Source: Staphylothermus hellenicus DSM 12710 (GTDB taxonomy: Archaea > Thermoproteota > Thermoprotei_A > Sulfolobales > Desulfurococcaceae). From it: DNA of 32,000 nt. The stretch spans positions 960,001 through 992,000 of the forward strand of contig NC_014205.1 of the NCBI RefSeq assembly GCF_000092465.1, given 5' to 3'. This document shows, piece after piece, positions 3,882-27,609 of the stretch. Position 1 is the stretch's first letter, and each line of letters begins with the position of its first letter. Position numbers and translations under genes: made by a program. Under the pieces are notes generated by a model that was not told where the DNA came from, did not search any database, and worked only from the letters and a program-made list of their open reading frames with translations.

Positions 3882-5663
3882 ATGGGTGATCCACGTATGG
3901 CTGCAAAGAATTCCATCCAGGTCTTAATAGCTGGTCCAGCTGGAAGCGGAAACATTACAAGCGGTTTAGTTATTGCTAGAGCCCTTCATAAGCTAGGATA
4001 TCACGTAATAGGTGTATCCGAGTATCCCAGTCTTATAAGAGGGGGACACACAGTATACTGGGTGAGAGCAGGAGTAGAAAAAATCTATGAACTATATAGG
4101 ACAAGCGATTATATTGTTACATTTGATGAAACAACATATACTAGGCAAGAAAAGGATTTCCGCGGAGACAGTATTGTAGTGTTTGATCCCGATCTCGTAA
4201 AACGTGATCCTCCACGAGGAATTAAATACGAAGCACCTATGAGAAAAATTATTCGTGAATACAAGTTAAAACCTATAACAACGAACATGTTAGCCACAGG
4301 TGTGATCGCTGGATTAATGGGGATTCCTCTCGAGGAAGTGGCTTGGTCAATAAAGTATCAGTTTAGAGGAAAAGAGAAAGTAATTGAAGAAAACGTTAAA
4401 GCAGCTATGATTGGCTACGAATACGTAGCTAAACACCCATTAACAGCTCAGACTTATCGTTTAGAACCATCGAAACCATGGGGTCCAAGAATACTGTTGA
4501 CGGGTAATGAAGCAATAGGCTTAGGATTCGTTAAAGGGGATCTAAGACTATATGTAGCATATCCTATGACCCCTGCTTCTCCACTCTTACACTTCATGGT
4601 TAGAGTGATGAAAGATAAGAACATACCAGTAATACAGGCGGAGAACGAAATAGCTGCTGCACAAATGGCTCTCGCAGCTACGTGGGCAGGGGTTAGAGCC
4701 GCTACAGGTACGAGTGGTGGTGGATTCGCATTGATGAATGAAACACTTAGTGAAGCTGGTATGTTAGAGCTACCGCTAACCATAGTTTTAGCTATGAGGC
4801 CTGGTCCAAGCACTGGAATGGCTACTCATTCAGCACAAGAAGATATGCTCTATAGCTTATTTGCTGGACATGGGGAATTCCCGAGAATAGTTGTTGCACC
4901 AGCTGATCAGGAGGATGCATATTATAGAGCGGTTGAAGTATTAAATCTTGGCTGGAAATACCGGGTTCCAGCAATAATATTAGTTGATAAACACCTAGCT
5001 GAAAGCATTAGATCAGTTCCCGCATTCAGAGAAGATCTAAGCCTTGATTATGGAGCATTAATACCGAGAGAAGAAGCTGAGAAGAGAATAGGGGAGGGAT
5101 GGGAGTTTAAACCATACATGGATACCGAAACAGGTGTTCCACCATGGGTACCGCCGGGTACGAAGGGAGCATTGGTTAAGGCAGATAGTAGTGAGCATGA
5201 TGAAAGAGGTATTGTAACAGAAGATCCTGTTAATGCTGATAAACAATATAGGAGAAGGATGAGGAAGGAAGGATATCTTAGAAGAGAACTTGAAGAAAAA
5301 TATGAGGTACTAAGAGTATATGGTGAAGAACCAGATAAAACTGACCTAGTTATTTTAACGTGGGGTTCGGCGGCTTGGGCAAGCTTGGAGGCGAAGAAAC
5401 TATTGTCTAAAGACGGCGTTGATTTAAGTATAGTACAAGTGATTTATCTATGGCCTTTCCCAAGAAGAACATTTATAGAGACAATGAAGAAATACAAGGA
5501 TAAACCTATTGTTACCGTGGAATACAATTATCGTGGACAACTAGGGATTTTAGCATATATGGAGACAGGTGTGAAGACAAGTGGGCATATAGGAAAAGTT
5601 GATGGAAGACCGTTTAGAGCAGAAGACCTTGCATCTAAGATCAAAGAATTTTTAAAATCTTAA
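3882..5663 (+). CDS. 2-oxoacid:ferredoxin oxidoreductase, fused gamma-alpha large subunit (two-subunit Sulfolobus/Aeropyrum-type OFOR)
   Basis: The N-terminal gamma-like domain (IAGPAGSGNITSG) is fused to an alpha domain (YVAYPMTPASPL, ENEIAAAQMALAATWAGVRAATGTSGGGFALM). The likely true start is ATG 3897, preceded by GGTGATCC (anti-16S-like). Confidence 0.9.
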   Translation: MGDPRMAAKNSIQVLIAGPAGSGNITSGLVIARALHKLGYHVIGVSEYPSLIRGGHTVYWVRAGVEKIYELYRTSDYIVTFDETTYTRQEKDFRGDSIVVFDPDLVKRDPPRGIKYEAPMRKIIREYKLKPITTNMLATGVIAGLMGIPLEEVAWSIKYQFRGKEKVIEENVKAAMIGYEYVAKHPLTAQTYRLEPSKPWGPRILLTGNEAIGLGFVKGDLRLYVAYPMTPASPLLHFMVRVMKDKNIPVIQAENEIAAAQMALAATWAGVRAATGTSGGGFALMNETLSEAGMLELPLTIVLAMRPGPSTGMATHSAQEDMLYSLFAGHGEFPRIVVAPADQEDAYYRAVEVLNLGWKYRVPAIILVDKHLAESIRSVPAFREDLSLDYGALIPREEAEKRIGEGWEFKPYMDTETGVPPWVPPGTKGALVKADSSEHDERGIVTEDPVNADKQYRRRMRKEGYLRRELEEKYEVLRVYGEEPDKTDLVILTWGSAAWASLEAKKLLSKDGVDLSIVQVIYLWPFPRRTFIETMKKYKDKPIVTVEYNYRGQLGILAYMETGVKTSGHIGKVDGRPFRAEDLASKIKEFLKS

Positions 5664-5676
5664 AAGAAATAGAGGG

Positions 5677-6564
5677 GTGAATAATATGTCCATATATAGA
5701 CAACCCGTATCCGAAACAGGAGCAGTTATAACATGGTGTCCTGGATGCGGTAACTTCGGAATTCTCCAAGCATTTAAGAAAGCTGTGAACGAATTAGGTA
5801 TTGAGCCTTATAGACTCGCAATAGTGACAGGCATAGGTTGTCACGGTAAATTATCGAGTTATATTAATGTTAATTCTATACATACAATACATGGAAGAGT
5901 ATTGCCAATGATCACAGCAATTAAGGCTGTTAATAAGGATCTCGTTGTAGTCGGTTTTGCCGGTGACGGAGATCAATACGGTATTGGTGCAGGACATCTT
6001 CCCCATGTTGTTAGGAGAAATCCTGATGTAACATTAATAGTGCATAACAATACAGTGTATGGGCTCACCACGGGACAGGCTTCACCTACAACTGAGAGAG
6101 GACAAGTTACTAGGACAACTCCTTGGGGTCAGTGGGAAGAACCAATTAATCCTATAGCTATGATGGTGGCTTTAAGAGCTAGCTTTGTCGCTCGAGGATT
6201 TGCTGGAGACGTAGAGCATTTAAAATACATTATTAAGGAAGCCATTAAACATAAAGGATTCAGCTTCATAGATGTATTACAACCATGTGTAACATTCGAT
6301 AAACTACACACATACACATGGTATAGGCAACGCATATATAAGTTAGAGGAGACAGGACACGATCCTACTAACTGGGAGGAAGCAATGAAGAAAGCATATG
6401 AGTGGGGAGACCGTATACCTATAGGGATAATTTATAAAGAGGAAAAGCCTACAATGGAGGAACTACTAGAACCAATTAAGAATAATCCGCCGCTCGCATA
6501 TATACCGATACAGCAAAAACCTATAAAGGACTTAATGGAAAAACATGTTTCATTAACCAAGTAG
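5677..6564 (+). CDS. 2-oxoacid:ferredoxin oxidoreductase beta (TPP/[4Fe-4S]) subunit of the two-subunit OFOR
   Basis: Contains WCPGCGNFGIL, GIGCHGK and FAGDGDQYGIGAGH...HNNTVYGLTTGQ (TPP motif). The likely start is ATG 5686, 6 nt after GAGGGGTGA. Confidence 0.9.
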   Translation: MNNMSIYRQPVSETGAVITWCPGCGNFGILQAFKKAVNELGIEPYRLAIVTGIGCHGKLSSYINVNSIHTIHGRVLPMITAIKAVNKDLVVVGFAGDGDQYGIGAGHLPHVVRRNPDVTLIVHNNTVYGLTTGQASPTTERGQVTRTTPWGQWEEPINPIAMMVALRASFVARGFAGDVEHLKYIIKEAIKHKGFSFIDVLQPCVTFDKLHTYTWYRQRIYKLEETGHDPTNWEEAMKKAYEWGDRIPIGIIYKEEKPTMEELLEPIKNNPPLAYIPIQQKPIKDLMEKHVSLTK

Positions 6565-6751: not shown

Positions 6752-7219
6752 CTAAGTACTGGTTATATTGTGGATATTCCTAAGTCTCTCCCTAATCTCA
6801 TCGATATCAGGGTGTTTTTCCCCAATACTATTAATAGCTGATATGACAAGCTTTAATCCAATAAGTGTTTTCGTTAAAAACGCCCTGCTTATTCTAAGGA
6901 ATTCATTTATTCCTTTCGATGTAGGATGATATAGTATGATTTTTCTCCTACCTTTATATTGTATCCTCTTCTCAATAAATCCTTCTTCAAGAAGCTCGTT
7001 CAGTATCCTATAAATTGTACCAATTGAAGGTTTCTCTATTAGTTCTAATCCATGTATCAGATCCAATAATTCCTTATATATTCCATATCCATGTATTTCT
7101 CTATTCTTAATTATAATCCCCAAAACTTTGATTTTAAATACGCTTCTAAACTTCTTCTTTCTAGTCTGCATATTTATTCCCATTATGTTTTTATCCAGTA
7201 AGATTTTTAATCTAGTCAT
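6752..7219 (-). CDS. PadR-like winged-helix transcriptional regulator
   Basis: HGYGIYKELL...PSIGTIYRILNELLEEGFIEKRIQYKGRRKIILYHPTSKGINEFL matches the PadR wHTH pattern. It is divergent from the MATE transporter. The true start may be an internal Met. Confidence 0.7.
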   Translation of the reverse strand: MTRLKILLDKNIMGINMQTRKKKFRSVFKIKVLGIIIKNREIHGYGIYKELLDLIHGLELIEKPSIGTIYRILNELLEEGFIEKRIQYKGRRKIILYHPTSKGINEFLRISRAFLTKTLIGLKLVISAINSIGEKHPDIDEIRERLRNIHNITST

Positions 7220-7236
7220 ATATAAATATCTTCTGT

Positions 7237-8640
7237 TTGAATATATTCTGGTGGAATATATTGCGTAGAGGCGCGAGCGAAGATTTACATGTGCTTAGGA
7301 AAAGAATACTAAAGGGAGACATAGTTAAGACTGTTCTATGGCTAGCTTGGCCTATAATATTAGCGAATCTAGTTAATATGTCATATAATCTTATAGATGC
7401 TTACTGGCTAGGAAAACTCGGTAAAGAAGCTTTTGGAGCGCCCACTGTTAGTTGGCCTTTAATAATGCTTTTCTACTCTATTGGATTTGGATTCTCACGT
7501 GCAGGAATAGCGTTGATTGCACAATATGTTGGAGCTGGAAATTTAAAAATGGCTAATAAATCAGCTGGTAATCTTTTATCATTTATGGCGCTTATCTCTT
7601 TATCAATTAGTGGAATAGGATATTTTCTATCCCCACCTATACTTAGCTTAATGGGTGTTCCACTAGATATTTATCCTTACGCAGTCGAGTATATACGTAT
7701 AATCTTTATTGGAGTACCCATAGCATTTATTGGTTTCGCATTCAATACTATAGCGAATAGCTTGGGAGATACCAGGACACCAACCTATATTAATATAGTA
7801 TCATCTTCTACAAACATGGTTTTGGATCCACTATTTATTTTTGGATATTTCGGTTTTCCCGCAATGGGGGTTAAGGGAGCGGCTGTTGCAACTGTTCTGT
7901 CTAGATCGATAGTATCGATTATAGGATCATACTTGTTATTCACAGGTTATCGCGGAATAAAAATAACTATAAACGATTTGGGAATCGAGAAATGGTGGAT
8001 TAAAAAAGTTGTATCAATAGGAACACCGCTGACAATACAGCAATCATCTAATTCTCTAGGATTCACGATCATGATGAGTATAGTGAGCAGATTTGGATCA
8101 GTTGCTGTTTCTGCTTATGGTGTGGCTATTAGAATAATTGATGTATTATCAGCGTTTACATGGGGGATCAATAGAGCCTTATCAATAATGGTTGGGCAAA
8201 ACCTGGGAGCAGAATACTATGATAGAACAAAGACTATTGTTAAGAAAACCATGTGGTTAACAACAATAATACTAGTAATAGGATCAGTATTTATATTCTT
8301 AACAAGAGATCTGACTGTTGCATTTTTCGTTCCCGAAAAAGATGTTATCATGGAGGGAAGTAGGGTTTTAGCCATATTTACATGGTCTATACCTTTCTTC
8401 GGACTATTCTTTCTAGGAGGAGCGGTTGCGGGAGGTTCTGGGCATACAAAGATCTTCGCTATAATATCTATTATTAGGCTATGGGTACTGAGAATTGGAT
8501 TTAGCTATTTATTAGCTCTAGTCATGGGGATGGGGACTATTGGTATATGGGTAGCAATGGCTATAAGCAATATTGGTGCGGGATTACTGGCTCTACTATG
8601 GGTATTTAAAGGTAGTTGGGCTAGGAGAGTTATTGATTAG
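7237..8640 (+). CDS. MATE family multidrug/compound efflux transporter
   Basis: About 12 hydrophobic segments in roughly 460 aa. The N-terminus (LWLAWPIILANLVNMSYNLIDAYWLGKLG) and mid-repeat (IGTPLTIQQSSNSLGFTIMM) are typical of MATE. The TTG start is uncertain. Confidence 0.85.
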   Translation: MNIFWWNILRRGASEDLHVLRKRILKGDIVKTVLWLAWPIILANLVNMSYNLIDAYWLGKLGKEAFGAPTVSWPLIMLFYSIGFGFSRAGIALIAQYVGAGNLKMANKSAGNLLSFMALISLSISGIGYFLSPPILSLMGVPLDIYPYAVEYIRIIFIGVPIAFIGFAFNTIANSLGDTRTPTYINIVSSSTNMVLDPLFIFGYFGFPAMGVKGAAVATVLSRSIVSIIGSYLLFTGYRGIKITINDLGIEKWWIKKVVSIGTPLTIQQSSNSLGFTIMMSIVSRFGSVAVSAYGVAIRIIDVLSAFTWGINRALSIMVGQNLGAEYYDRTKTIVKKTMWLTTIILVIGSVFIFLTRDLTVAFFVPEKDVIMEGSRVLAIFTWSIPFFGLFFLGGAVAGGSGHTKIFAIISIIRLWVLRIGFSYLLALVMGMGTIGIWVAMAISNIGAGLLALLWVFKGSWARRVID

Positions 8641-8645
8641 AAAAC

Positions 8646-9869
8646 TTATTCATACCTTAAAGCTACAGCAGGGGGGATTTTTGCGGCTCTATAAGCTGGA
8701 AAGATGCTACCCACTATTCCAACCATTATAGTTAATAATATGGTTAAAGATACATTGAATACATTAATGTCAGGTCGCGCACTAATTATAATTTCACTTG
8801 TCCCACTAGAAATCACTAATCCCCTTGAAGCCATAGCATATGCTCCCACAACACCTATTGATATACCTATAACTGCGCCAATGAGGCTCATAACTATTCC
8901 TTCAGCAATAATTAAAACCAGTACTTGACCATCTGTGAATCCGAGAGCTTTCATAACACCTATCTCTCTAGTTCTTTCAATAACAGATGTTATCATAGTA
9001 GCTGCAACACCCGCGATAGCTACTGCAAAAGCTGCTAAGCTAGCAGAAAAAGTCATGAAGCCGACAGCGCTTGATATTGATGAAGCTATTTGAGCGAAGG
9101 CTAGGAAAGATATAACATCTACGCTTCTACCATATATGTTCCTTATAGTATTTGTTACATTATTAATCATGGAGGGATCCTTAACATATAATAGGATCCC
9201 ACTCCATTTCTTAACTCCTAAAAGCTTCTCGGCCCCATTCATGCTTATAAATATTGTTTTATCAGGATTTAATAATGCAGCTCCACCATACTTCTCTAAT
9301 ATAGCTGATATCGCTAGGCTTACATGTTTTATTTCCAGCTCACCCCCGCTCTTCACTTTAACTACTTTAACACTGATCACATCTCCTAATCCATATACTT
9401 CTCTACCTTCATCATTATATGCTATATCATGCCCAACAATGCATTTACTGATCTCCGTAGGTGAAGGTATTTCTCCCATACTTATTTTTAGACTTGGTAT
9501 AGCCTTGAAAAGGAAATCATAATTAACAGCATAAATAAATACCTCTTCCTCTTTTCCTCCAATCCTCATCGTTCCCTGTGTTGAATAGAATGGTGATGCA
9601 TCTACTACTCCATTAATTGTTTTTAAAAATTCTAGATCATCCTCTGTAACAGTGTATTCATCAGTAGACATTACTACTACAAGGTTCTGGCCGAACCCCT
9701 GTATTTGTTGGACAATATAGCGTGAATAACCACTAGTAACACTATTAATTGTGATCAGTGCTAATGGCCCAATTGCTATTCCAATAATCGTAAGGACTGC
9801 TCTTACCTTCTTCTCTGATAGGGTCTTTATCGCTAATCTAATGATGTCGCTGATAAACATTGTTATCAA
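8646..9869 (-). CDS. FtsX/MacB-type ABC transporter permease (4 TM, large extracytoplasmic domain)
   Basis: The N-terminus LAIKTLSEKKVRAVLTIIGIAIG forms TM1. An extracytoplasmic region of about 230 aa follows, then a C-terminal FtsX domain (ERTREIGVMKALGFTDGQVLVLIIAEG...AYRAAKIPPAVALRYE). The likely start is ATG 9860. Confidence 0.85.
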   Translation of the reverse strand: MITMFISDIIRLAIKTLSEKKVRAVLTIIGIAIGPLALITINSVTSGYSRYIVQQIQGFGQNLVVVMSTDEYTVTEDDLEFLKTINGVVDASPFYSTQGTMRIGGKEEEVFIYAVNYDFLFKAIPSLKISMGEIPSPTEISKCIVGHDIAYNDEGREVYGLGDVISVKVVKVKSGGELEIKHVSLAISAILEKYGGAALLNPDKTIFISMNGAEKLLGVKKWSGILLYVKDPSMINNVTNTIRNIYGRSVDVISFLAFAQIASSISSAVGFMTFSASLAAFAVAIAGVAATMITSVIERTREIGVMKALGFTDGQVLVLIIAEGIVMSLIGAVIGISIGVVGAYAMASRGLVISSGTSEIIISARPDINVFNVSLTILLTIMVGIVGSIFPAYRAAKIPPAVALRYE

Positions 9870-9879
9870 CCATTTTATC

Positions 9880-12800
9880 TTAGTGTTCCCATTTTCTCTT
9901 CGTATATCTATGTAGTAGATAGAATATAGATGCCAAGAATACGCCTACCATAATAGTCACTATTATATAGTATATTGTGTAATCTTGTTTTTCCGTAGTA
10001 GTAGCGATAGGTGTTCTAGCTTCTTCAACTATTTTTACCGGCAAGCTGAACTCCTTCTTATAAATCCCGTTATAATCATCTCTATATCCTAAGATTAACG
10101 TGATATTATGTGTGGGGGGATTCTTTATTTTAGCTTCAAGCCTAAATGCTGCTTGTGAAGCTGGGTCGATATCGCCGATAAATGATAGTGCTGAGTAGTT
10201 CTCATATACTAGTTTAACATATGTGCTTCTAGCACTAGATACGCCGTAATTTATAATTAAGCCATTAACCACTAATTTTCCACTACTATATTTTACACTA
10301 ATGTCTGGAGAAATCTCTAAATCTATGAATGGGGCAACTCTAGCTGCAACTGTTGTGTTTAGAATGTTAATATTTCCACTTATATCCCTATACATTATGT
10401 TAGCACTAAACGAGATTGTTAGAGAAGAGACTGATGCCCCACCATAACTTATTGATACCGGATTATATATCACCATGTACCTAATTGTTTTGTTTGTTCG
10501 GCTCTGAATAGTGCCTACGTATTTAACATTGTCTAATGGTACAGCGTTCATAGATGCTGGTGCAAGTAGTATATAGGTGTCATAGACAGCGTTTTCACTG
10601 GGATTAGTAATGATTAAATCAATATATCCCGTACCATTATCGAATACTATTAGAGGAGTTTTAGGCAGGACATCAATTTCTAGCGGTTTACCTATAACTA
10701 TGAAGGGTATCGATATATTAATTACATGTACACTGCCCCAGTGATCAACGAAGTTTATTGCTCCATGTATCTTGGAGTAATAGGGTTTTGACAGGTTAAG
10801 GTTTAGTTTTAGTGTAAACGATAAATAATCTCCCAAGCTAGCTGATTGTCCCGAAGGCATTGATTGTTGCATAAGTAGTGTAGCTAGTTGTTGTTGAAGA
10901 TTCTGTGATGCCTGAATGGATGGTATTATCGCTTGCGGTGTTATATTTACTACCCTAGTATTCGTTACTGAATATGTTATATTATCTGGTAGTACTCCGG
11001 TAAAGTATATACCATTCATTGATGGTATCTCATTGTTTCTAACAATGAAGTAATAGGTTGCACCATGGATTACTAGTGGAGGCTGGCCGCCGAGCCAACC
11101 ATATTGTATAGTTGTTAATGCTTTTTCGGGATCCTTTATTTCCAATACTACCGGGATAACTATAGATTTCCTATACCCGCCATTGTTTGCGTATACATAG
11201 TAGTCAACAATGATTTTCGCATTATATATTCCTGGATCAACATCTCCTATGTCAAGTGTGAATGATGCTGTAAATGTTTGTAGAGACTGTACTGGTCCCT
11301 CAACATAGTATAAATCGTCATGTATATTGTGGGGTACTATATTGTTTGGAGGCAATATTTTAACCACTATAGAGCCTATACCATATGGTTCGAGATTAGC
11401 TAGGGTAACCGTATAAACTGTTTTCTCCGATCTAGGATATACCGGCCAATTATTTATCCATCCACTTGAAACCAAATATATGCTATTATTATTTAATTGT
11501 GCACCATAGCTTGGTAGATCCAATTTTATACTGTATTCTTTCTCCATGTTATTATATGATCCATATATTCCCTGGAGATAACTGGTTTTAACAATAAATT
11601 CTTTCATTCCTGCAGACGTGTCTTGTAGGTCTAGATAGAATGTAATGGTACATGTTGCACCAGCAGCTAGCGTGTTGCAGACTTGATCATTGTTTAAGAC
11701 TTTTATTGATTTATCCAGGGGTATTATCTTTGATCTAAAAGCATATACTGGGTATTCACCCAAGTTGAGAAACGTTAATGTTAATGGTGCTTTTTTATCG
11801 CCGGGATATATCGTGGTTGGAGTGTTTGTTCCCCAATAATGTCTAATGAGGAGTATTCTCGAGGCATATTTTGATGGATCCTCTATTGTTACATTGTAGT
11901 AGATAGTTTGTTTATGTTTTACTAAAGCACCATTACTGTTAATGAACATTTCAATATTTAGTTTTAACATATAAGTTCCCGGTGTAATATTCCCTACTCG
12001 TAACACATATGATATGGTCGTAGAGGATCCGCTCAACAAATTATTTATGAATTGAGTATTAGACCCAATAACCTCTATCCCATGAGGAGATTCTAGTTCG
12101 ACTTTTAGAGAAGTGATTGTATCTCTGAAATTGTTTAACAATATAAAACTAATGATTTCACCATTGCTATTTGGTAGTAAGGGTGAGGGTTGTCCTTGAT
12201 AAGTTGTTCTTACACCTAATACTATCAAGGGGTTAAATGGTGAATTAATACTTAAACATACAATTATAGACTTATTTGCTTCATATACACCGTTTCCATG
12301 CTCCATGACTGCGTTTATAGATAGGTTAAATACTAGATGATCAGACTCAATACTATCTAGGTTTAAACCGTTGAATGTAATAGTGAATGCTTGGAGATAA
12401 TTAATATTATTATTTATAACCCTAACTATTTCTTTTTCACCATTAGGACCATATACTCCGCTTGGCAAGTACAGCTTAAAAATTATTTCACGTATAGTAT
12501 CCTGTGAGAAGCTTTGAAACGTTAAATATAATCCTACATTGTCAGCAGATGAAGATATAGTATCTGTCGTCCATCCCTTATCTATCAATGAAATATTTAG
12601 TGAAGGCTTAAGTATAGTTAATATGATGACGTATGTCTTATTAAGCCAAGTTTGGCTTCCATCAATGGTTATTAGCATTGATTGTTTTAGTACAATATAT
12701 GTTGTTCCGGTAATATTGTTTGAAATATTTATATTATCATAGTTGAGGCTGAAAATGTCTCCATATGTTAATGGATTATTAACAACATATATGTCATAGT

Positions 12801-14535
12801 TGTCGCCGGTGTTCTCCGAGGTTATACCGTTAGGATAATATATTACTGTATAGATCTTATTGATAGTTGTATCAGCAACTATTTGTTCAACGACACTAAG
12901 CGATGCTCCGTTTTCTCCAGCATATGCTTTTCCTCCTCTCCAATAATAATTCAATATATTTATGGGGTCAACATATGGATTACTAATTTGTATTATTAAT
13001 GTATAATTCAATAATACATTAGAATATGATCCATCAGCATTTCTCAGTAGTAGAAATAATGAGAGCTTCGCAGTATAGTTTCCGGGTCTCGCCTCCGCAG
13101 ATACATCTATTGGGGAGAAAGTTATTGTGGTATATGAGTTACTTGGAATAGCGATGTTATCGTGTATTATGGTTTCTGGATAGAATACCTTTTTATCTAA
13201 GTATAATATAGCTGTTCCACTAACTACATCTGAGTAATCCTTATTGATAATTATCACTCTCAACTCTTGATCAATTGATCCAGGATATACTTTATAATTG
13301 CTCCAATAAACATTAAACACATCTATTTTGGGTAGTGAACGGTTTAGTTTTATATAGAAAGAGTTTGTCCAATTAACCCAGTAAGATGATCCTTTATACG
13401 TTACTACTCCGTGAAACTCTATATTTACAATAATATAAGATATATTCTCCTCTATGCTTAAACGATCAGATGTAACAGTAAATGTATTACCATAGTTTAT
13501 CGGGCCCCTAACAACTACTACTGAGCTATGGGAGCCATTAATAAATTCTGCATTATGAACACTTATCTTTGCAACTAATACATTGAGAGTTGAGGAATCC
13601 ATGCTCTGCATTGTGACATAGAATCTCGTATTTCTACTTCCAGGTAATGGATGATTAGTTGCTAATCCATAATCTAATATGGTGTATCTATAAGGAGGTG
13701 TTTTCTCTATTGTTATGTTGAATGGTATTGTTGTATTATCATTATATACTACTCCATCACTAGTCGCCATTTGCGCAGAAATTTTCAAATACCCACTATA
13801 TCTTCCCGGCTTAGTATCAGGCAATATTTCTAAATTATCTATTGATATTGTAAATACTTGGTTTGAAACAATATTTGATATGGATGTTCTTGAACTATTG
13901 GGTTTAATGAAGCTTGGCAGTTCAACTTTTACATCAGCATATCTGATTGTTGAATTACCTGTGTTTTCAAGCTCTATAACCAGAGTTACTGGATTAGCTC
14001 CTGGGTATCCGTATGGTGTAAAATATGATTCTCTAAACGATATGGATAAGCTGGGATATGGTTTTACTTCAGCAACGATCACGTGTTGCTCTGACATAAA
14101 TGTATTGTTGGACTTATATGTTATATTTAAGTTAAACGAATATGTTCCTGGCGAGACATTTTTACTAACATCTATGCTGTATTGAAACCTAACCATTTCG
14201 CCTGGCGAAACCTTCTCAACAACGTTTCCATCAAAATCCCTTGCTGCACTACAACTACTTGTAACTACAGAAAATCCCTGAGGGAGATCGATACATGCAT
14301 AAATATTGGATGCATTAATTGTTGTATTAGAATAATACATAGCATCCACGAGCAAAACAGCATTTTTACTTCCAGGATAAACATCTCCACCCGTGGATGA
14401 CCTAAATTTTACGTTTTTAATTTCGAAATAAACAGTGGAACTACTAGTAGTGTTTCCAATATTAAATATAGGATACATGGAGAGAAGTATCGATATTAGT
14501 ATAATCATTGAAATAAGTCTGAATACAGATTTCAT
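9880..14535 (-). CDS. giant (1551 aa) secreted, membrane-anchored surface protein built of about 10 degenerate beta-sandwich (CARDB/COG1361-like) modules; probably N-glycosylated
   Basis: N-terminal signal/anchor is MKSVFRLISMIILISILLSMYP. The C-terminus has a Thr-rich stalk, a TM helix and a basic tail (TPIATTTEK...IIVTIMVGVFLASIFYLL-HRYTKRKWEH). A paired PG signature recurs (see findings). I count about three dozen N-x-S/T sequons by hand. No catalytic motif seen. Confidence 0.8.
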   Translation of the reverse strand: MKSVFRLISMIILISILLSMYPIFNIGNTTSSSTVYFEIKNVKFRSSTGGDVYPGSKNAVLLVDAMYYSNTTINASNIYACIDLPQGFSVVTSSCSAARDFDGNVVEKVSPGEMVRFQYSIDVSKNVSPGTYSFNLNITYKSNNTFMSEQHVIVAEVKPYPSLSISFRESYFTPYGYPGANPVTLVIELENTGNSTIRYADVKVELPSFIKPNSSRTSISNIVSNQVFTISIDNLEILPDTKPGRYSGYLKISAQMATSDGVVYNDNTTIPFNITIEKTPPYRYTILDYGLATNHPLPGSRNTRFYVTMQSMDSSTLNVLVAKISVHNAEFINGSHSSVVVVRGPINYGNTFTVTSDRLSIEENISYIIVNIEFHGVVTYKGSSYWVNWTNSFYIKLNRSLPKIDVFNVYWSNYKVYPGSIDQELRVIIINKDYSDVVSGTAILYLDKKVFYPETIIHDNIAIPSNSYTTITFSPIDVSAEARPGNYTAKLSLFLLLRNADGSYSNVLLNYTLIIQISNPYVDPINILNYYWRGGKAYAGENGASLSVVEQIVADTTINKIYTVIYYPNGITSENTGDNYDIYVVNNPLTYGDIFSLNYDNINISNNITGTTYIVLKQSMLITIDGSQTWLNKTYVIILTILKPSLNISLIDKGWTTDTISSSADNVGLYLTFQSFSQDTIREIIFKLYLPSGVYGPNGEKEIVRVINNNINYLQAFTITFNGLNLDSIESDHLVFNLSINAVMEHGNGVYEANKSIIVCLSINSPFNPLIVLGVRTTYQGQPSPLLPNSNGEIISFILLNNFRDTITSLKVELESPHGIEVIGSNTQFINNLLSGSSTTISYVLRVGNITPGTYMLKLNIEMFINSNGALVKHKQTIYYNVTIEDPSKYASRILLIRHYWGTNTPTTIYPGDKKAPLTLTFLNLGEYPVYAFRSKIIPLDKSIKVLNNDQVCNTLAAGATCTITFYLDLQDTSAGMKEFIVKTSYLQGIYGSYNNMEKEYSIKLDLPSYGAQLNNNSIYLVSSGWINNWPVYPRSEKTVYTVTLANLEPYGIGSIVVKILPPNNIVPHNIHDDLYYVEGPVQSLQTFTASFTLDIGDVDPGIYNAKIIVDYYVYANNGGYRKSIVIPVVLEIKDPEKALTTIQYGWLGGQPPLVIHGATYYFIVRNNEIPSMNGIYFTGVLPDNITYSVTNTRVVNITPQAIIPSIQASQNLQQQLATLLMQQSMPSGQSASLGDYLSFTLKLNLNLSKPYYSKIHGAINFVDHWGSVHVINISIPFIVIGKPLEIDVLPKTPLIVFDNGTGYIDLIITNPSENAVYDTYILLAPASMNAVPLDNVKYVGTIQSRTNKTIRYMVIYNPVSISYGGASVSSLTISFSANIMYRDISGNINILNTTVAARVAPFIDLEISPDISVKYSSGKLVVNGLIINYGVSSARSTYVKLVYENYSALSFIGDIDPASQAAFRLEAKIKNPPTHNITLILGYRDDYNGIYKKEFSLPVKIVEEARTPIATTTEKQDYTIYYIIVTIMVGVFLASIFYLLHRYTKRKWEH

Positions 14536-14610
14536 TTTATCTTCCCCAATATTTCTTCATTACCTTATCATATTGATAATAGTATATTTCGTACCGAGTT
14601 AAATAATTTC

Positions 14611-15330
14611 TCACTTCACAGTTTGAAGAATACATTTATCAGGTACGGGTTTTTCTTCTCTTATTATTACTCCGTCTCTCAATATGTATATTTTCTGCGT
14701 ACAATTAGCCACTTCAGGATCATGTGTTACCATTATAATTGTTTGTCCTTTGCGATTAAGATCTATAAATGTTTTAATAACAGACTTAGCTGATTTTCTA
14801 TCTAGGTTTCCAGTGGGTTCATCCGCTAGTATTATCTCTGGTTCACCTACTAGTGCTCTAGCAATGGCTACTCTTTGTTGCTGGCCACCACTAAGCTGGT
14901 TTGGATGTTTAGGTAGCCATGATAAGTCTCCACCAGCCATTAATAATGCTTTTTTGACCCTTTCTATTCTTTCTTTCCTAGGGATTTTCCTAACGATTAG
15001 AGGTAACTCAATATTTTCAAGAACTGTTAACCTATTTATGAGGTTAAATGATTGAAATACAAAACCTATTTTCATATTGCGTATGCGAGCTAGTTGTTTT
15101 GATTTTAGTTTTGAAACATCTATGCTGTCTATTAGTATTTTTCCTTCAGTGGGATGATCTAGTAATCCGATCATGTTTAGCAGTGTTGTTTTGCCTGAAC
15201 CGCTTGGCCCCATTATTGATATGAACTCTCCTTCGTATACATTTAAGTCTACTCCTCTCAAACCCCACGTGACTACTTCTCCTACTCTATAAAGTTTTTT
15301 GACCCCTACTAGTTCTATAACCTTCTTCAT
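14611..15330 (-). CDS. ABC transporter ATP-binding protein, LolD/MacB-type
   Basis: Walker A GPSGSGKTT, Q-loop, signature LSGGQQQRVAIARAL, Walker B IILADEPTGNLD, H-loop VTHD. Confidence 0.92.
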   Translation of the reverse strand: MKKVIELVGVKKLYRVGEVVTWGLRGVDLNVYEGEFISIMGPSGSGKTTLLNMIGLLDHPTEGKILIDSIDVSKLKSKQLARIRNMKIGFVFQSFNLINRLTVLENIELPLIVRKIPRKERIERVKKALLMAGGDLSWLPKHPNQLSGGQQQRVAIARALVGEPEIILADEPTGNLDRKSAKSVIKTFIDLNRKGQTIIMVTHDPEVANCTQKIYILRDGVIIREEKPVPDKCILQTVK

Positions 15331-15351
15331 TTCAATACATCACTTATAGAT

Positions 15352-16212
15352 CTATCCCTTAATAATGCCCTGCTTCAATAAGCCAATGAATCTTTTACCG
15401 TTAAAGAACTTTGTTTTTACTCCTCTAACCATGAGTATTCTATCTATTTCTTCCTCACCCATTTTTCCCGGGTCATATGTTTTTGATCCTAGTATAAAGT
15501 TGCATGTATAGTTGAAGCTTGGAATCCACACCCAATACTCTGCTAGATGGGGAAATACCTTGGACAAATTATTATATACATAATCATATGCTTCCCTATA
15601 ATAGAAACTATTACCTGCTTGGGTAACAACTACTCCATCCTCACCAAGTATCCTATGTATTTCCCGGTAAAACTTCTCGGAATACAATGGCTTAGCTACT
15701 TCTCCCGCATATGGATCTGTTAAATCAAGAATCACTACATCGTAGTAGTTATTTGGAGCTTCTTTGACATATTTTAGCCCATCCATTATGATTACTTTTG
15801 CTCTCTTATCATAGAAGCTTCCCTGATGCATGTATTCGAGATACTTTTTCGAGAACTCAACAACTTTCTCATCAATATCAACCATTACAGCTTCCTCAAC
15901 AGTTTTATGTTTAAGTACTTCTCTAAGAGTTGCCCCCTCTCCTCCACCTATGATTAATACTTTTCTAGGATTTGGATGCAGAACCATGGCTGGATGAACT
16001 AGTGATTCGTGATAAATATATTCATCTCTCTCAGTGCTCTGAATAAGATTATCTATAATTAATGCTCTCCCAAAATCTTCTAATTCTGCAAGCATTATTT
16101 CTTGGTAAGGAGTCTTTTCTGTTACGAATACTTTTTTAACTTTGAACAAAGACGCTAGCTTTGGGCTAGTAGGCTCTATAATGAATAACCCGCCGGTAAT
16201 ATAGTCTTCCAT
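15352..16212 (-). CDS. speE: spermidine synthase / polyamine aminopropyltransferase
   Basis: Contains LIIGGGEGATLREVLKH, VMVDIDEKVVEFSKKYL, DVVILDLTDP and YHESLVHP, the typical SpeE fold motifs. Confidence 0.9.
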   Translation of the reverse strand: MEDYITGGLFIIEPTSPKLASLFKVKKVFVTEKTPYQEIMLAELEDFGRALIIDNLIQSTERDEYIYHESLVHPAMVLHPNPRKVLIIGGGEGATLREVLKHKTVEEAVMVDIDEKVVEFSKKYLEYMHQGSFYDKRAKVIIMDGLKYVKEAPNNYYDVVILDLTDPYAGEVAKPLYSEKFYREIHRILGEDGVVVTQAGNSFYYREAYDYVYNNLSKVFPHLAEYWVWIPSFNYTCNFILGSKTYDPGKMGEEEIDRILMVRGVKTKFFNGKRFIGLLKQGIIKG

Positions 16213-16319: not shown

Positions 16320-17465
16320 GTGGATGAAAACGAGCTTATAAATAATTTGAGTAAAGCATTGGGCATTGAATACGAGAAGCTCTCAAAACATATAGGTAGA
16401 TCTATTAGGTTAATGAAGTATGGTGAACTGAACTATGCCGTCTTAAGAAGAGATCTCCTAGGATACCGTGAAGGAACAACTATCTTGCTTGGAGACGAAC
16501 CATTAATAGTTCACGGATACCCCAGTATTCAAAGATTAGCGTTTATCGAAGGAGTATCTAAACATATGATAGATAATGTTGTAGTAGAGGAGAAAATGAA
16601 CGGCTATAATGTCAGAATAGTTTATTATATGGGGAACATATATGCGATCACACGTGGAGGATATATTTGTCCATATACAACAGCTAGAATAAGAAAACTA
16701 TACTTTAAAAACATTAAGCTAGCCCATCAAGAATACCCAGACATAGTTTTAGTGGGCGAAGTAGTAGGGACGGAAAATCCCTATGTAGTATATGATTATC
16801 CCGAAGCTAGAGGATTTGATTACTTCATATTTGACACTATGAAAAAAGATAAATTACAACCCCTGAAAATAAGAGACGAAATAGCCGAGAAGTACAGCTT
16901 GAAAGCAGTAAGAGTACTGGATATTATTGATAAGAAAGATATTGATGGGTTAAAATCAATTATAGACAGGTTAGAGAAGGAAAGAAGAGAAGGTGTAGTA
17001 TTAAAAGATCCCTATCACCGTGTTCCACCGCTAAAATATACAACAATATATATTAATATAAGAGATATCTGGGAAGGAATGAGGCATCCCTTCGATGAAG
17101 GAAGAGGATACCTGTTTTCTAGAATAGTAAGGCTAATAGCACAAGGATATGAATATGACTGGAACAATGCTGAGCTAGATAGGATAGCATTAAAACTAGG
17201 AAGAGCAATTCTAGAACCCGCAATTAATTCTTTGAGAAAAAGAGCTAATGGAGAAATTATTGCGTCAAAATATACATTGGTGTTTCCCTCAGAAGATGAT
17301 CTATCAAAATATATAGAGTATGCAGAATCTATAGGAATGGACTTTATATTCAGAGTTGTTGAGAAACGAGAAGATGGATGCATAGTTGTTGAATTATTCA
17401 AAATGAAGGAAACACACAACATATATACGAAAATGCTTAAAACTGGTTATTCACCTCTTGACTAA
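16320..17465 (+). CDS. ATP-dependent RNA ligase, Pab1020 (Rnl3) family
   Basis: The nucleotidyl-transferase motif I is VEEKMNGYNVRIVY (KxxG lysine). Also present are GEVVG and EGVVLKD motifs. The 381-aa size matches the family. Starts at GTG. Confidence 0.8.
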   Translation: MDENELINNLSKALGIEYEKLSKHIGRSIRLMKYGELNYAVLRRDLLGYREGTTILLGDEPLIVHGYPSIQRLAFIEGVSKHMIDNVVVEEKMNGYNVRIVYYMGNIYAITRGGYICPYTTARIRKLYFKNIKLAHQEYPDIVLVGEVVGTENPYVVYDYPEARGFDYFIFDTMKKDKLQPLKIRDEIAEKYSLKAVRVLDIIDKKDIDGLKSIIDRLEKERREGVVLKDPYHRVPPLKYTTIYINIRDIWEGMRHPFDEGRGYLFSRIVRLIAQGYEYDWNNAELDRIALKLGRAILEPAINSLRKRANGEIIASKYTLVFPSEDDLSKYIEYAESIGMDFIFRVVEKREDGCIVVELFKMKETHNIYTKMLKTGYSPLD

Positions 17466-17832: not shown

Positions 17833-18486
17833 ATGGGTAAAATGGAAGTTATAGATATAGATAGCGGTAAACCAAAATTGTCTATCGGTAGGAGAAAATA
17901 TGCTCTTGAAGAAGTGGATGAAACACATTATCAAGCAATAGTATCATATAGAACACTATCCAAGTATATATTCCAAGACTTACCAGCCCCTGAAACCCTT
18001 AGAGGAAACATACTAATAGAGTTTCTACCATTCACTAAGAAAAGCGGTGAATACGCATATGAATCCAAAGGGCTGAGATTCTTTGGCGAAGCAAGTGTTT
18101 GGCGGGATAATGAACGAGGCCATGTCTACTTAGAACACACAGTTTATACTTCTAAATACTCTTTTAATGCATGGATTCCAATTGATCTATACACATTTAT
18201 AATAGTTAAAATAGCCAAGGAGCTTGGTTTTGAAGCAGAAGTTTACCGTGATGAAGCTAATGTCGTAGTTGAAATAGAAAAAACTTATCCATTAGATACA
18301 CCTGTAAGAATAGCACTACTTGAGATCAAAGAAATCGATAGAAAAGCACGCCGTACGCTTGATAAAATCCTATCGAAAATAAAGAAAAAAGACATCAAGA
18401 TCTTAGCTAAAGAGCTAAATACTTCAACAGAAGAAATTCTAAATATATTAAAGATGCCGGAAGAAAAACTTTCAACTCTTCCATAA
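17833..18486 (+). CDS. hypothetical protein (217 aa)
   Basis: Long ORF with typical coding composition and an ATG start. The C-terminal segment DIKILAKELNTSTEEILNILKM is HTH-like. No family recognised. Confidence 0.6.
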   Translation: MGKMEVIDIDSGKPKLSIGRRKYALEEVDETHYQAIVSYRTLSKYIFQDLPAPETLRGNILIEFLPFTKKSGEYAYESKGLRFFGEASVWRDNERGHVYLEHTVYTSKYSFNAWIPIDLYTFIIVKIAKELGFEAEVYRDEANVVVEIEKTYPLDTPVRIALLEIKEIDRKARRTLDKILSKIKKKDIKILAKELNTSTEEILNILKMPEEKLSTLP

Positions 18487-22691: not shown

Positions 22692-23411
22692 TTATAAGCT
22701 TAGCTGTGTATATAGTCTGAGTAGATCCGATACGTCAAATTGTTTTGGTAATCTAATATAGAATTTAGATATGAGTTCTGTGTAATAATTTATTATTTGC
22801 TCACTAACTATTCGAACCAAATCCTCAGGGATATTATTATGATACAAAGAATCCAGCAATCCCATAGCTGGGTAATATATTGATTTAAGCATGTTTTCAG
22901 CAAGATTAAAAGCATCAATAATTAATGTTTTCCCCTTACACTTTATTGCAAGCGATAAATAGCCTGCTTTATACAGTAGCATTTTATTTGTAGAGACAAA
23001 ACATATCTTGTCTTTCTTCATCCAGCACTTATATTCTTTTTTCAGCATATCTTTCCATTTCTTCTTTAGAAATTCGTTCCCGATCCTCTCAAAGATTTTC
23101 CTAAAATTCTTGTATTTAGTTATAAATAACCCGTTTAACTCACTATATATAGGCCTATATATTCCTAGATCCCAGCTACTCAGCTTCTCAATGCTTGCAT
23201 GATCTACTCTATAAATGTAACCTACTATGTATCTTTCAGATTTATTTTCTAGCTCCATAATTATATTGGAGAAACCATATATTGTCTCTATATTTGGTAA
23301 CAGTTTTTCCCTAGATAGTATATTAAATATCCTAGCCGTATTATTGCCAACATAATATGGAATACGCCCTAAACATGCGAGGAAATCGCCTAATACACTA
23401 TCCATTTTCAC
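22692..23411 (-). CDS. hypothetical protein (239 aa), directly abutting the YkgJ-like gene
   Basis: Long ORF with an ATG start. Its stop codon is immediately adjacent to the next ATG (22691). No motif recognised. Confidence 0.6.
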   Translation of the reverse strand: MKMDSVLGDFLACLGRIPYYVGNNTARIFNILSREKLLPNIETIYGFSNIIMELENKSERYIVGYIYRVDHASIEKLSSWDLGIYRPIYSELNGLFITKYKNFRKIFERIGNEFLKKKWKDMLKKEYKCWMKKDKICFVSTNKMLLYKAGYLSLAIKCKGKTLIIDAFNLAENMLKSIYYPAMGLLDSLYHNNIPEDLVRIVSEQIINYYTELISKFYIRLPKQFDVSDLLRLYTQLSL

Positions 23412-23458
23412 ACCTAGTTAATAAACAATATTAGGATATAAGTTATAAATGATTGTGT

Positions 23459-23531
23459 AGAGGCGGAGCCCTCGCCCGCCAGAGGCTCCCGTTGTAGGGA
23501 GAGCTATGATGGCGGGTTCCGTCGGGCGGCA
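23459..23531. ncRNA. G+C-rich structured element (candidate small RNA or 5' leader), family unknown
   Basis: About 69% G+C by hand count (51 of 74 nt), with AT-rich flanks. Helices: GGAGCC 23465-70 with GGCTCC 23484-89; CTCCC 23486-90 with GGGAG 23497-501 (mutually exclusive with the first); CCCGCC 23475-80 with GGCGGG 23511-16. TATA-like boxes lie on both sides. Confidence 0.4.
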
Positions 23532-23554
23532 TATATCTTTCAATTGTTGCTGAA

Positions 23555-24103
23555 TTGGTGGGCCTATTGCCTAGGAGATACCGTGTTGAAACATATAGTG
23601 GAGACATGATAGTTGCTGAAATAATCGATAATGGTAAACAAGAAGTCATAGTTAAGTTGCCGGGTTTGAAGGGAGAGATAAAGGCTAGAATAAAGAAGAT
23701 AGTTGATGAAAACACTATTCTTGTAGAAATAAATGATAAAATATATAGAGTATATATGAGTGGGGATGGGATCCTAATAAACGATGAAGTATCTCTAATC
23801 AATAAAATAATTGAATTAATACCTATTGGGCTAAAATCAAGCTATTCAGAGAAAAAGATAACCACTATTATTAGGAAAGGAGAGATAAGAGCCCCATTAT
23901 CAGGTAAAATCATTGATATAAAAGTTAAACCCGGAGATAAAGTATCATTTGGAGACGTTGTAGCTTTAATGGAGTCTATGAAAATGGTTACCGAGATCAA
24001 AAGTGACGTAGACGGTATAGTAGAGGAGGTACTTATAGAAAAGGGTAAAGCTGTAAATAAAGGTACATTGATTATGCGTATAAAACCATTAGAGAAGAAG
24101 TGA
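23555..24103 (+). CDS. biotin carboxyl carrier protein / biotinyl-domain subunit
   Basis: The C-terminal biotinyl domain is IRAPLSGKIIDIKVKPGDKVSFGDVVALMESMKMVTEIKSDVDGIV, with the MKM biotinylation motif. The start is uncertain (TTG 23555, GTG 23558 or ATG 23606). Confidence 0.8.
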   Translation: MVGLLPRRYRVETYSGDMIVAEIIDNGKQEVIVKLPGLKGEIKARIKKIVDENTILVEINDKIYRVYMSGDGILINDEVSLINKIIELIPIGLKSSYSEKKITTIIRKGEIRAPLSGKIIDIKVKPGDKVSFGDVVALMESMKMVTEIKSDVDGIVEEVLIEKGKAVNKGTLIMRIKPLEKK

Positions 24104-27276: not shown

Positions 27277-27609
27277 GTGATGTTTTTGGGAGTTGATGTT
27301 TTAGCGAATAGATTGATCAAGTATGTTGTAAGAAGAGCTGTTGGGTTACCAGCTGACGATCTAGAGCTTCAAAGAATAGTGGGTTCATCAAGATATATTA
27401 TTATGCGAAAAGCTGTTGGAGAAGTTGCTTCAACTATTGTAACCGAGAAAAACGGGCATTTAAGATGCGGTATATGCTTACGTGGACCATTTACTAGGAA
27501 AGGCTTATACCTTCACTTAATACGGGTTCATGGTAATGAAATATTATCAATGATAGAGGAGAAATATAGGGAGATCTCGAAAGTGTATAAAGACAATGTT
27601 TGGTATTAG
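27277..27609 (+). CDS. small protein with a single C2H2-type zinc-finger pattern
   Basis: CGICLRGPFTRKGLYLHLIRVH fits C-x2-C-x12-H-x4-H, including the conserved F and L positions. GTG/ATG start. Confidence 0.55.
   Translation: MMFLGVDVLANRLIKYVVRRAVGLPADDLELQRIVGSSRYIIMRKAVGEVASTIVTEKNGHLRCGICLRGPFTRKGLYLHLIRVHGNEILSMIEEKYREISKVYKDNVWY

Follow-up and report, generated by a model that had tools for sequence, protein, structure and literature searches.

A conserved archaeal gene cassette in which a predicted Ig-array surface protein is encoded between a MacB/LolD-class ATPase and an FtsX/MacB-type permease

We analysed a 32,000-nucleotide (nt) stretch of the Staphylothermus hellenicus DSM 12710 genome (NC_014205.1, positions 960,001 to 992,000; hereafter the window), in which three co-directional minus-strand genes encode, in order, an ATP-binding cassette (ABC) ATPase, a very large surface protein (hereafter the giant) and a transmembrane (TM) permease (Table 1). 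This row of genes had been described in an earlier reading of the sequence alone (hereafter the original prediction), and all of its coordinates hold. These include the spacer between the ATPase and giant genes as well as the gap between the giant and permease genes, which measures 10–19 nt depending on whether the permease starts at the TTG used here or at the ATG at 9860 annotated by NCBI, the latter yielding a protein of 404 amino acids (aa). A Shine-Dalgarno-like motif, GGGGA, lies in the ATPase-giant spacer ~8 nt 5' of the giant ATG, and reading of this spacer revealed no T-run terminator; a T-run is present after the permease stop codon. Amongst orthologous cassettes the spacer ranges from -28 to +157 nt.

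Table 1. Coordinates of the cassette, of the modules of its products and of the adjoining genes within the window.
Feature	Position	Strand	Basis
MacB/LolD-class ATPase gene, 239 aa	14611-15330	minus	open reading frame (ORF) call
ATPase-giant spacer, 75 nt	14536-14610	minus	sequence reading
Giant surface protein gene, 1551 aa + stop	9880-14535	minus	ORF call
Giant: N-terminal hydrophobic helix, aa 1-24	14464-14535	minus	hydropathy, AlphaFold2 (AF2) helix
Giant: D1-D2, aa 37-281, conserved distal 'head' pair	13693-14427	minus	length classes, identity
Giant: D3-D7, aa 282-888, expandable spacer	11872-13692	minus	homolog lengths, occupancy
Giant: D8-D9, aa 889-1136, Cys953/Cys962 pair	11128-11871	minus	kept in all but the 832-aa form
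Giant: D10-D12, aa 1137-1503, membrane-proximal module	10027-11127	minus	kept in the 832-aa form and the most distant relatives
Giant: Thr-containing linker, TM helix and basic cytoplasmic tail	9883-10026	minus	hydropathy, AF2 helix
Permease gene, 407 aa from TTG start	8646-9869	minus	ORF call
Permease: extracytoplasmic domain, aa ~45-268	9066-9737	minus	alignment and hydropathy
PadR-family regulator	6752-7219	minus	PF03551 at 3e-10
MATE efflux transporter	7237-8640	plus	PF01554 at 8e-62
Spermidine synthase (speE)	15352-16212	same strand as ATPase	

The ATPase belongs to PF00005 (3e-35 in Pfam) and retains intact Walker A, Q-loop, LSGGQ, Walker B plus glutamate, and H-switch motifs. Its best NCBIfam models, DarD, MacB, LolD and FtsE, score 200–239 bits, all below their equivalog cut-offs (TIGR02211 LolD, 207 versus 308 bits; TIGR02673 FtsE, 200 versus 265 bits). 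The closest solved homolog is MJ0796 from Methanocaldococcus jannaschii (9e-67), followed by Spr0694, LolD, MacB and BceA, with PsdA also amongst its close solved relatives. Family, top-scoring models and catalytic motifs all agree with the LolD/MacB-type assignment made originally, and the protein has the nucleotide-binding domain of the type VII (MacB/FtsX-fold) ABC superfamily.

The permease contains PF12704 (MacB_PCD, aa 25–244) and PF02687 (FtsX, aa 275–400) in Pfam, and its hydropathy places TM1 at aa 24–42 and three further TM helices at the C-terminus, leaving an ectodomain of ~225 aa, close to the roughly 230 aa first estimated for what was called an FtsX/MacB-type permease. This predicted topology, four TM helices with a large ectodomain between TM1 and TM2, is that of a type VII permease. 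Three ectodomain motifs are invariant across the subfamily: PFYxTQ (93–98), YGGAxxxxPD (194–203) and WxGI (222–225). When a profile built from six orthologs was compared with solved structures, it aligned end to end with A. actinomycetemcomitans MacB (5lil) and with LolE (7arh), and LolE/LolF and Spr0695 were amongst the best solved relatives. LolCE, MacB and ADOP models match the permease, all under their cut-offs; the best curated model is LolCE, which aligns over the full length (TIGR02212 lolCE, 94 bits versus a cut-off of 362), whereas FtsX_Gpos covers only aa 228–390 (28 versus 225 bits). As MacB and LolE align end to end and the FtsX-specific models match only the C-terminal membrane part, the ectodomain appears to be of the full MacB/Lol type and not the reduced FtsX type.

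The giant is 100% identical to an S. hellenicus protein named 'S-layer domain protein' in UniRef (S-layer, surface layer) and 83% identical to Smar_1439 of Staphylothermus marinus. AF2 models of its two halves, each run with 38 homologs (predicted local distance difference test scores of 90.4 and 86.7), comprise an N-terminal helix (aa 1–24), 12 beta-sandwich domains of ~120 aa (D1–D12), a short linker, a C-terminal TM helix and a basic tail; the giant is, as modelled, a rod of twelve immunoglobulin (Ig)-like domains. The N-terminal helix is poorly conserved (17% identity) and is predicted to be either a Sec signal peptide or an uncleaved signal-anchor. At the other end, the TM helix spans aa 1523–1541 by hydropathy and aa ~1520–1550 in the AF2 model (model residues 755–785), and is followed by the tail HRYTKRKWEH. 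The signal or anchor, C-terminal TM helix and basic tail that had been proposed are therefore all seen in hydropathy and AF2, whereas the proposed 'Thr-rich stalk' was overstated and shrinks to a 16-residue linker (TPIATTTEKQDYT). About three dozen N-x-S/T sequons had been counted by hand; the number is 34, compared with 21.8 ± 4.1 in shuffles of the same protein.

The sole Pfam match to the giant is a weak one to NEW3 (PF10633, 28.1 bits versus a cut-off of 24.4, aa 100–140), and PF07705 (CARDB) was not detected by Pfam in the giant of the window and is weak or faint in its homologs. Along with the beta-sandwiches and the TM anchor, the PF10633 match fits the COG1361/CARDB/NEW3 'S-layer domain' class, which is a structural class and not a functional assignment. 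NCBIfam, PADLOC, PHROGs and PDB sequences gave no match, and a Foldseek search of the PDB returned only generic tandem Ig/MG/ASH arrays (hydin, mastigoneme, alpha-2-macroglobulin/C5) with template modelling scores of 0.1–0.3. No catalytic fold was found in Pfam, in any of these libraries, in the AF2 models or by Foldseek, such that sequence and structure searches agree with the earlier statement that the protein has no enzymatic motif. A hidden enzyme or an alpha-2-macroglobulin-like thioester role was considered and rejected, the alpha-2-macroglobulin/C5 matches being low-scoring generic arrays and Pfam, NCBIfam, PADLOC and PHROGs yielding nothing of the kind. Staphylothermus already has tetrabrachion as its S-layer. 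The giant does not appear to be tetrabrachion because it is a predicted Ig-domain rod that lacks a coiled coil, its AF2 models containing no long helices besides the terminal TM segments; nor does it match any sequence in the PDB, which includes solved fragments of the tetrabrachion stalk. Lineages with other S-layers have members of the family as well, and the giant was likewise rejected as the main S-layer protein.

Homolog lengths divide the rod into conserved ends and an adjustable middle (Table 1). Giant homologs have quantised sizes (832, ~942, ~1068, ~1195, ~1430, ~1565 and ~1680 aa) separated by steps of approximately one domain. The segments missing from the shorter forms map to aa 282–765; D3–D7, where column occupancy is 0.49–0.82, are lost or gained as whole domains. 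Even the 832-aa form keeps aa 1–281 (D1–D2) and aa 1134–1547 (D10–D12 and the TM helix). Identity is highest in D1, D9, D12 and D2, and the D1–D2 pair, which occurs in nearly all length classes and at 0.39 and 0.35 has the highest identity of all domains, carries a near-invariant Cys81/Cys95 pair and invariant YPGS and Y/T/D/Y columns. The membrane-proximal domains carry the motifs NYGxSxARSV, FIGDIDPASQxAFR and YRDxYN, and it is mainly to D10–D12 that the most remote representatives match. D10 also bears a Gln-rich helical insert, IQASQNLQQQLATLLMQQSMPSGQSASLGDY (aa ~1205–1235, ~10831–10923), which is the sole non-beta element of the ectodomain and is modelled at low confidence; it has partly conserved QL..QQ...KGD positions and is a candidate docking element.

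Overall, the giant evolves much faster (25–35% identity) than either the permease, whose orthologs are 44–70% identical, or the ATPase. As the membrane-proximal domains and TM helix are conserved and the middle is variable, a contact with the permease would most plausibly lie at the base of the giant. In a mirror-tree comparison, the permease ectodomain correlated with D10–D12 of the giant at a rho of 0.63, with D1–D2 at 0.60 and with the ATPase at 0.44, and this preference for the two ends of the giant lends weak support to their coupling with the permease.

The gene order itself is widely conserved. Amongst six contigs carrying ever more distant homologs of the giant, ABC genes surround it in five, with unrelated flanks, and are absent only from the most distant (L004, 25% identity). 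We then surveyed the arrangement by searching a permease alignment against one genome per species in GTDB, which yielded 80 loci, and by applying our own ORF calling and phmmer to each. These loci span Desulfurococcales, Thermogladius, Ignisphaera, Zestosphaera, 'Sulfolobales' metagenome-assembled genomes (MAGs), Bathyarchaeia and Nezhaarchaeales, and 79 of them have a homolog of the giant directly before the permease gene and co-directional with it; the remaining locus is on a 2.9-kb contig. With flanks that are unrelated, an arrangement kept in 79/80 species-level genomes is far beyond chance. The spacing between the two genes is mostly -4 to +22 nt, including 17 overlaps of four nt in our own ORF calls, and overlaps are also found in independent gene calls (L001, L090 and L093); translational coupling is suggested by these overlaps. 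Of 58 complete cassettes, 42 have the ATPase gene directly before that of the giant and eight more have it at another place in the locus, a displaced ATPase gene being divergent, downstream, farther upstream or outside the flank. As adjacency of giant and permease is near-universal while the position of the ATPase varies, we consider the giant-permease pair, inherited together over class-level distances, to be the invariant core of the cassette.

This core extends well beyond the lineages recovered with the permease. A profile search of 1.84 billion representatives recovered 134 relatives of the giant at E≤1e-30 and 1703 at E≤1e-3, the remote ones including proteins from Nitrososphaerota and Metallosphaera. 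Three of four remote representatives checked keep the giant-permease adjacency (L090, L092 and L093), two of them with the full ATPase-giant-permease order and overlapping genes, and the gene order is still present in relatives from Nitrososphaerota that only the profile search recovered (E 1e-28 to 1e-65), whose giants are barely alignable. Giant-like proteins without ABC genes also exist, namely one of 1251 aa in a MAG with PaREP1/HEPN neighbours (L004, 6001–9756) and one of 864 aa in Metallosphaera yellowstonensis (L091, 5001–7595). Because these paralogs stand alone, the Ig-array family appears to be broader than the ABC-linked clade. The converse was not observed: amongst the 80 species-level loci and the remote representatives, the short contig aside, the permease subfamily was never found without a giant. 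The expectation that the gene order would hold in related genomes was thus borne out as far as Nitrososphaerota, and orthologous ABC pairs lacking the giant, which the original prediction had named as evidence against itself, were not seen for this permease subfamily. Two distinct permease paralogs, ~61–62% identical to that of the window, occur together on one contig or in one genome of Desulfurococcus amylolyticus (P0068/P0072 on a 22,689-nt contig; P0071/P0075 in a 1,307,099-nt genome), which points to a duplication of the cassette or to a heterodimeric permease in this genus.

To describe the surroundings of the cassette we took a census of the 122 genes immediately flanking the 80 loci. 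The commonest families were PadR (15/122), Yip1 (nine) and peptidase M28 (seven), and neither a MacA/HlyD adaptor nor a TolC-like duct family was found in the window or amongst these 122 genes. PadR is usually divergent from the ATPase gene, follows the displaced ATPase in L028 and L030, and lies directly after the permease in two loci, making it a candidate regulator of the neighbourhood. Within the window, the MATE gene is convergent with the permease gene, whose 3' end it abuts, and divergent from padR; this PadR/MatE pair also borders the cassette of the closest relative (L009; MatE 4333–5712, PadR 5653–6231). DrrA-type ABC-2 ATPases are found in 21 flanks, with MATE and MFS genes also nearby. 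In nine Bathyarchaeia loci, a convergent Yip1-family gene lies 1–97 nt after the permease, and Yip1 may be a fourth, lineage-restricted component; loci with this gene include L035, L036, L038, L047, L053, L055, L070, L071 and L074. A Yip1 gene is also present in L007 (9456–10595) and in the Methanocaldococcus locus L089 (4288–4941). In Ignisphaera (L027, L050, L057, L061 and L078), a peptidase M28 of ~520 aa is encoded on the same strand ~16 nt downstream of the permease, a link that may be incidental, as the called ORF shows no evident signal peptide.

Comparison with known bacterial systems revealed partial likeness to several. As in MacAB-type systems, including the monoderm versions Spr0693-0694-0695 from S. 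pneumoniae and YknXYZ from Bacillus, the cassette has three genes, for the same class of ATPase, for a four-TM permease whose ectodomain is of Porter/Sabre size and for a single accessory protein that is anchored in the membrane and lies outside the cytoplasm. Here, however, the accessory protein is a predicted 12-domain Ig array and not MacA/HlyD, its anchor helix is C-terminal and not N-terminal, the gene order is ATPase-accessory-permease, there is no TolC, and the envelope is that of an archaeon covered by an S-layer canopy; the adaptor and duct that define MacAB-TolC are both missing. LolCDE and LolDF resemble the cassette in providing the best curated permease model and close solved relatives, and in that Lol acts on a membrane-anchored extracytoplasmic protein, as is proposed here, but the cassette has a single permease gene, neither LolA nor LolB and no lipobox client, the candidate client being anchored by a protein TM helix, and both Lol models score below their cut-offs. 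FtsEX, with EnvC, PcsB or RipC, is likewise of type VII and, as is proposed here for the cassette, exerts its effect on a dedicated protein partner outside the cytoplasm without transport across the membrane. Archaea lack peptidoglycan, however, and in contrast to FtsEX the permease has a full MacB-type ectodomain, the giant has neither a coiled coil nor a hydrolase-activating domain, and both the FtsE and FtsX_Gpos scores fall short. An anti-phage defence system was also considered and rejected, PADLOC having returned only generic ABC and LolE-TM matches.

Closer counterparts of the giant and of its neighbourhood are found amongst archaea. At the locus of the MJ0796 ortholog in Methanocaldococcus sp. 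FS406-22 (L089, 4955–9204), genes encode a SpoIIM-like protein, Yip1, a 507-aa CARDB protein, a 170-aa protein, the ATPase, a 134-aa protein and a MacB_PCD/FtsX permease, and the 507-aa protein shares D11–D12 and the TM anchor with the giant (hhalign probability 95.7%, E 1e-8). The MJ0796-type ATPase, this homology and the Yip1 gene shared with the Bathyarchaeia cassettes link the two arrangements; they differ in that the Methanocaldococcus CARDB protein is short (~4 domains) and encoded upstream of the ATPase, with the 170-aa and 134-aa membrane proteins interleaved, whereas in the archaeal TACK (Thaumarchaeota, Aigarchaeota, Crenarchaeota and Korarchaeota) group a giant of 6–13 domains is encoded between ATPase and permease. 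SalXY-type ABC genes beside S-layer-like and Yip1/arCOG01996 genes have been described in Methanococcales, Thermococci and Archaeoglobi, and were predicted to function in antimicrobial-peptide transport and defence or in membrane remodelling and vesicle formation (PMC4158269, PMC5898192). A context look-up for P0276 of Geoglobus yielded nothing. In our literature search we found no experimental study of such archaeal ABC/surface-protein systems and no description of the TACK ATPase-giant-permease cassette, and Smar_1438-1440 are unmentioned in the S. marinus genome paper. The earlier statement that no experimentally characterised example is known thus stands, but complete novelty does not, as the related euryarchaeal neighbourhoods had already appeared in those two comparative-genomic papers.

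The giant also resembles PySLP of Pyrobaculum arsenaticum, a membrane-anchored Ig array that forms hollow hexameric pillars 37 nm long (bioRxiv 10.64898/2026.08.21.746120). In both, a long stalk of tandem Ig-like domains leads to a TM helix at the C-terminus and a basic tail in the cytoplasm, and Ig domains have been gained and lost in particular lineages. PySLP, however, is a lattice-forming S-layer protein whose gene neighbourhood lacks an ABC transporter, and no membrane-proximal beta-hairpin like that of PySLP is evident in the giant model, in which the region between D12 and the TM helix is a low-confidence linker.

Taken together, the conserved pairing points strongly to a functional tie and supports the view that the ABC and the giant form a single machine, as subunits of one complex typically show such conservation, which favours a mechanistic link between giant and permease. 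Our preferred reading, to which we assign a probability of roughly 45%, is that the three genes encode one envelope machine, in which a homodimeric type VII ABC has as its stable partner a dedicated, C-terminally anchored and putatively N-glycosylated 12-Ig rod. Closing and opening of the ATPase dimer would move the permease ectodomain, by the mechanotransmission that MacB, LolCDE and FtsEX share and that membership of this family suggests. The motion would act on the membrane-proximal D10–D12 module and TM helix of the giant, whose adjustable Ig rod would span the pseudo-periplasm toward the S-layer canopy. The rod, probably oligomeric, may fill the role of the MacA-type adaptors of bacteria, monoderms included, receiving material that the pump has removed from the outer leaflet or pseudo-periplasm and preventing its re-entry into the membrane; the hexameric PySLP pillar is a precedent for a membrane-anchored Ig array of this kind. 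A comparable task has been proposed for MacB homologs with adaptors in monoderm bacteria, which are suggested to clear a 'periplasm', the accessory protein being thought to bridge the space outside the membrane (PMC5985334). Given the recurrent divergent PadR and the neighbouring MATE and ABC-2 efflux genes, the most likely physiological role would be to let the cell resist or expel amphipathic toxic compounds or peptides in an inducible, PadR-controlled manner.

Several observations weigh against this reading. The steps from being encoded together to binding each other, and from there to efflux, are ones that we infer, and the last of these, which draws on neighbouring genes only, is the weakest. 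PadR is adjacent in about a fifth of the loci, and in the window it is paired with the MATE gene and not with the cassette. The ATPase gene is detached in approximately a quarter of cassettes, and in the window a separate promoter may lie in the spacer that follows it. No part of the giant is similar to a MacA/HlyD adaptor or to a known channel. All parts of the system co-vary (rho 0.37–0.70), such that shared vertical descent could by itself produce a mirror-tree signal of this strength, and a conserved membrane-proximal module with its TM helix would be equally expected if the giant were a recognised cargo. The original prediction had proposed the giant as the partner or cargo of the ABC: its functional tie to the transporter stood, through the 79/80 adjacency and its persistence in Nitrososphaerota, while we favour the partner over the cargo reading and treat extraction, insertion and conformational control as candidate mechanisms.

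If the giant is cargo, it would sit in the membrane by its C-terminal helix after Sec export, and the ABC, behaving like LolCDE or Aat with a single client, would extract or reposition this anchor, after which the giant would be released, handed to the S-layer or turned over. The 1:1 genomic pairing of giant and permease is what a dedicated client would give, LolCE is the closest curated permease model and aligns over its full length, with LolE/LolF amongst the best solved relatives, and conservation of the TM helix, basic tail and membrane-proximal module is what one would expect of a recognition element. Type VII ABCs are moreover increasingly viewed as extractors of hydrophobic moieties from the outer leaflet (PMC12646458). 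We nonetheless regard this as unlikely, as no acceptor or chaperone that could receive an extracted hydrophobic helix is conserved in the neighbourhood, LolCE scores far under its cut-off, the single permease gene points to a homodimer and not a LolC/LolE pair, and the stand-alone giant-like paralogs (L004 and L091) manage without an ABC; a TM helix with a basic tail is, in addition, the standard permanent anchor of Thermoproteota surface proteins (bioRxiv 10.64898/2026.08.21.746120). It is also conceivable, though decidedly unlikely, that nothing is transported and that ATP instead switches the conformation of the rod in order to remodel or monitor the S-layer or envelope during growth, division, adhesion or vesicle release. 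FtsEX with EnvC or PcsB sets the precedent for such mechanotransmission, the giant keeps both of its ends and has an adjustable length, which could suit the distance from membrane to S-layer, and Yip1-family and SpoIIM-like proteins, which Makarova et al. read in terms of membrane remodelling and vesicle formation, accompany the system in Bathyarchaeia and Methanocaldococcus. Against this stand the full-size MacB/Lol-type ectodomain, the lack of an effector or enzyme domain in the giant or of a consistently linked hydrolase, and the PadR-type local regulation, which fits a stress or toxin response better than housekeeping morphogenesis.

The regulator and the euryarchaeal literature might also be read in terms of BceAB-like sensing or detoxification, in which the giant would offer antimicrobial peptides, viruses or toxins a large extracellular surface to bind, or act as a decoy for them, the ABC would free or clear the bound ligand and PadR would induce the system. 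PadR adjacency, the reading of euryarchaeal SalXY-type loci as antimicrobial-peptide transport or membrane-associated defence (Makarova et al. 2014), and the presence of BceA and PsdA amongst the close solved ATPase relatives are all in keeping with this, and an exposed ligand-facing surface would be expected to show the faster evolution and varying number of domains seen in the distal part of the giant. The D1–D2 head, however, is the best-conserved part of the giant and not hypervariable, the locus contains neither a BceB-like 10-TM permease nor a two-component system, and PADLOC and PHROGs give nothing beyond generic ABC matches, which makes this account highly unlikely. That there is no mechanistic link whatsoever, the giant being an ordinary surface or adhesion glycoprotein that sits inside an ABC operon and is at most co-regulated, seems to us extremely unlikely: giant-like proteins without ABC neighbours do exist (L004 and L091) and the ATPase gene is mobile relative to the giant-permease pair, yet the pair is kept in 79/80 species genomes and in Nitrososphaerota despite near-complete turnover of the giant sequence, its flanks are unrelated and its gene overlaps suggest translational coupling.

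Type VII ABCs (MacB, LolCDE, FtsEX, BceAB and YbbAP) are defined by their action on extracytoplasmic partners. To our knowledge, every characterised partner is bacterial, and of the many type VII ABCs that archaea encode, including that of MJ0796, which is amongst the ABC ATPases studied most, we know of none with an established partner or function. The cassette offers a concrete and conserved candidate partner with a module map, consisting of a conserved base and head and an adjustable spacer, and thus opens the role of MacB-type ABCs in cells bounded by an S-layer to direct testing. It is also relevant to the passage of material or force across the wide pseudo-periplasm of archaea. What is new is a class of candidate partner for a known type VII ABC machinery, one that has been noted only peripherally in comparative-genomic papers. 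In its broadest form, which we consider doubtful, the proposal would be that of an ancient archaeal envelope machine distributed across TACK and present in reduced form in Methanococcales, with a type VII ABC motor coupled mechanically to an oligomeric, length-adjustable Ig pillar that reaches the S-layer. If true, it would represent an archaeal counterpart of adaptor/exit-duct systems or an ATP-driven cell-surface actuator, and the textbook ATPase MJ0796 would for the first time be placed in a physiological context.

The rest of the window comprises housekeeping genes unrelated to the cassette, along with four ORFs of 110–239 aa that have no Pfam match at E≤1e-4 (17833–18486, 22692–23411, 23443–23802 and 27277–27609). 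A Pab1020-type RNA ligase gene (RNA_ligase plus Lig_C, 16320–17465) is divergent from the speE/ABC block and appears unrelated to it. The end of speE and the start of the ATPase gene are separated by 21 nt (15331–15351), a gap that contains a Shine-Dalgarno-like GTGATG motif; read-through from speE into the ATPase gene is possible, as no T-run is found in this short interval. A Spermine_synth gene is also present in Thermogladius (L003), a few kb upstream of the cassette.

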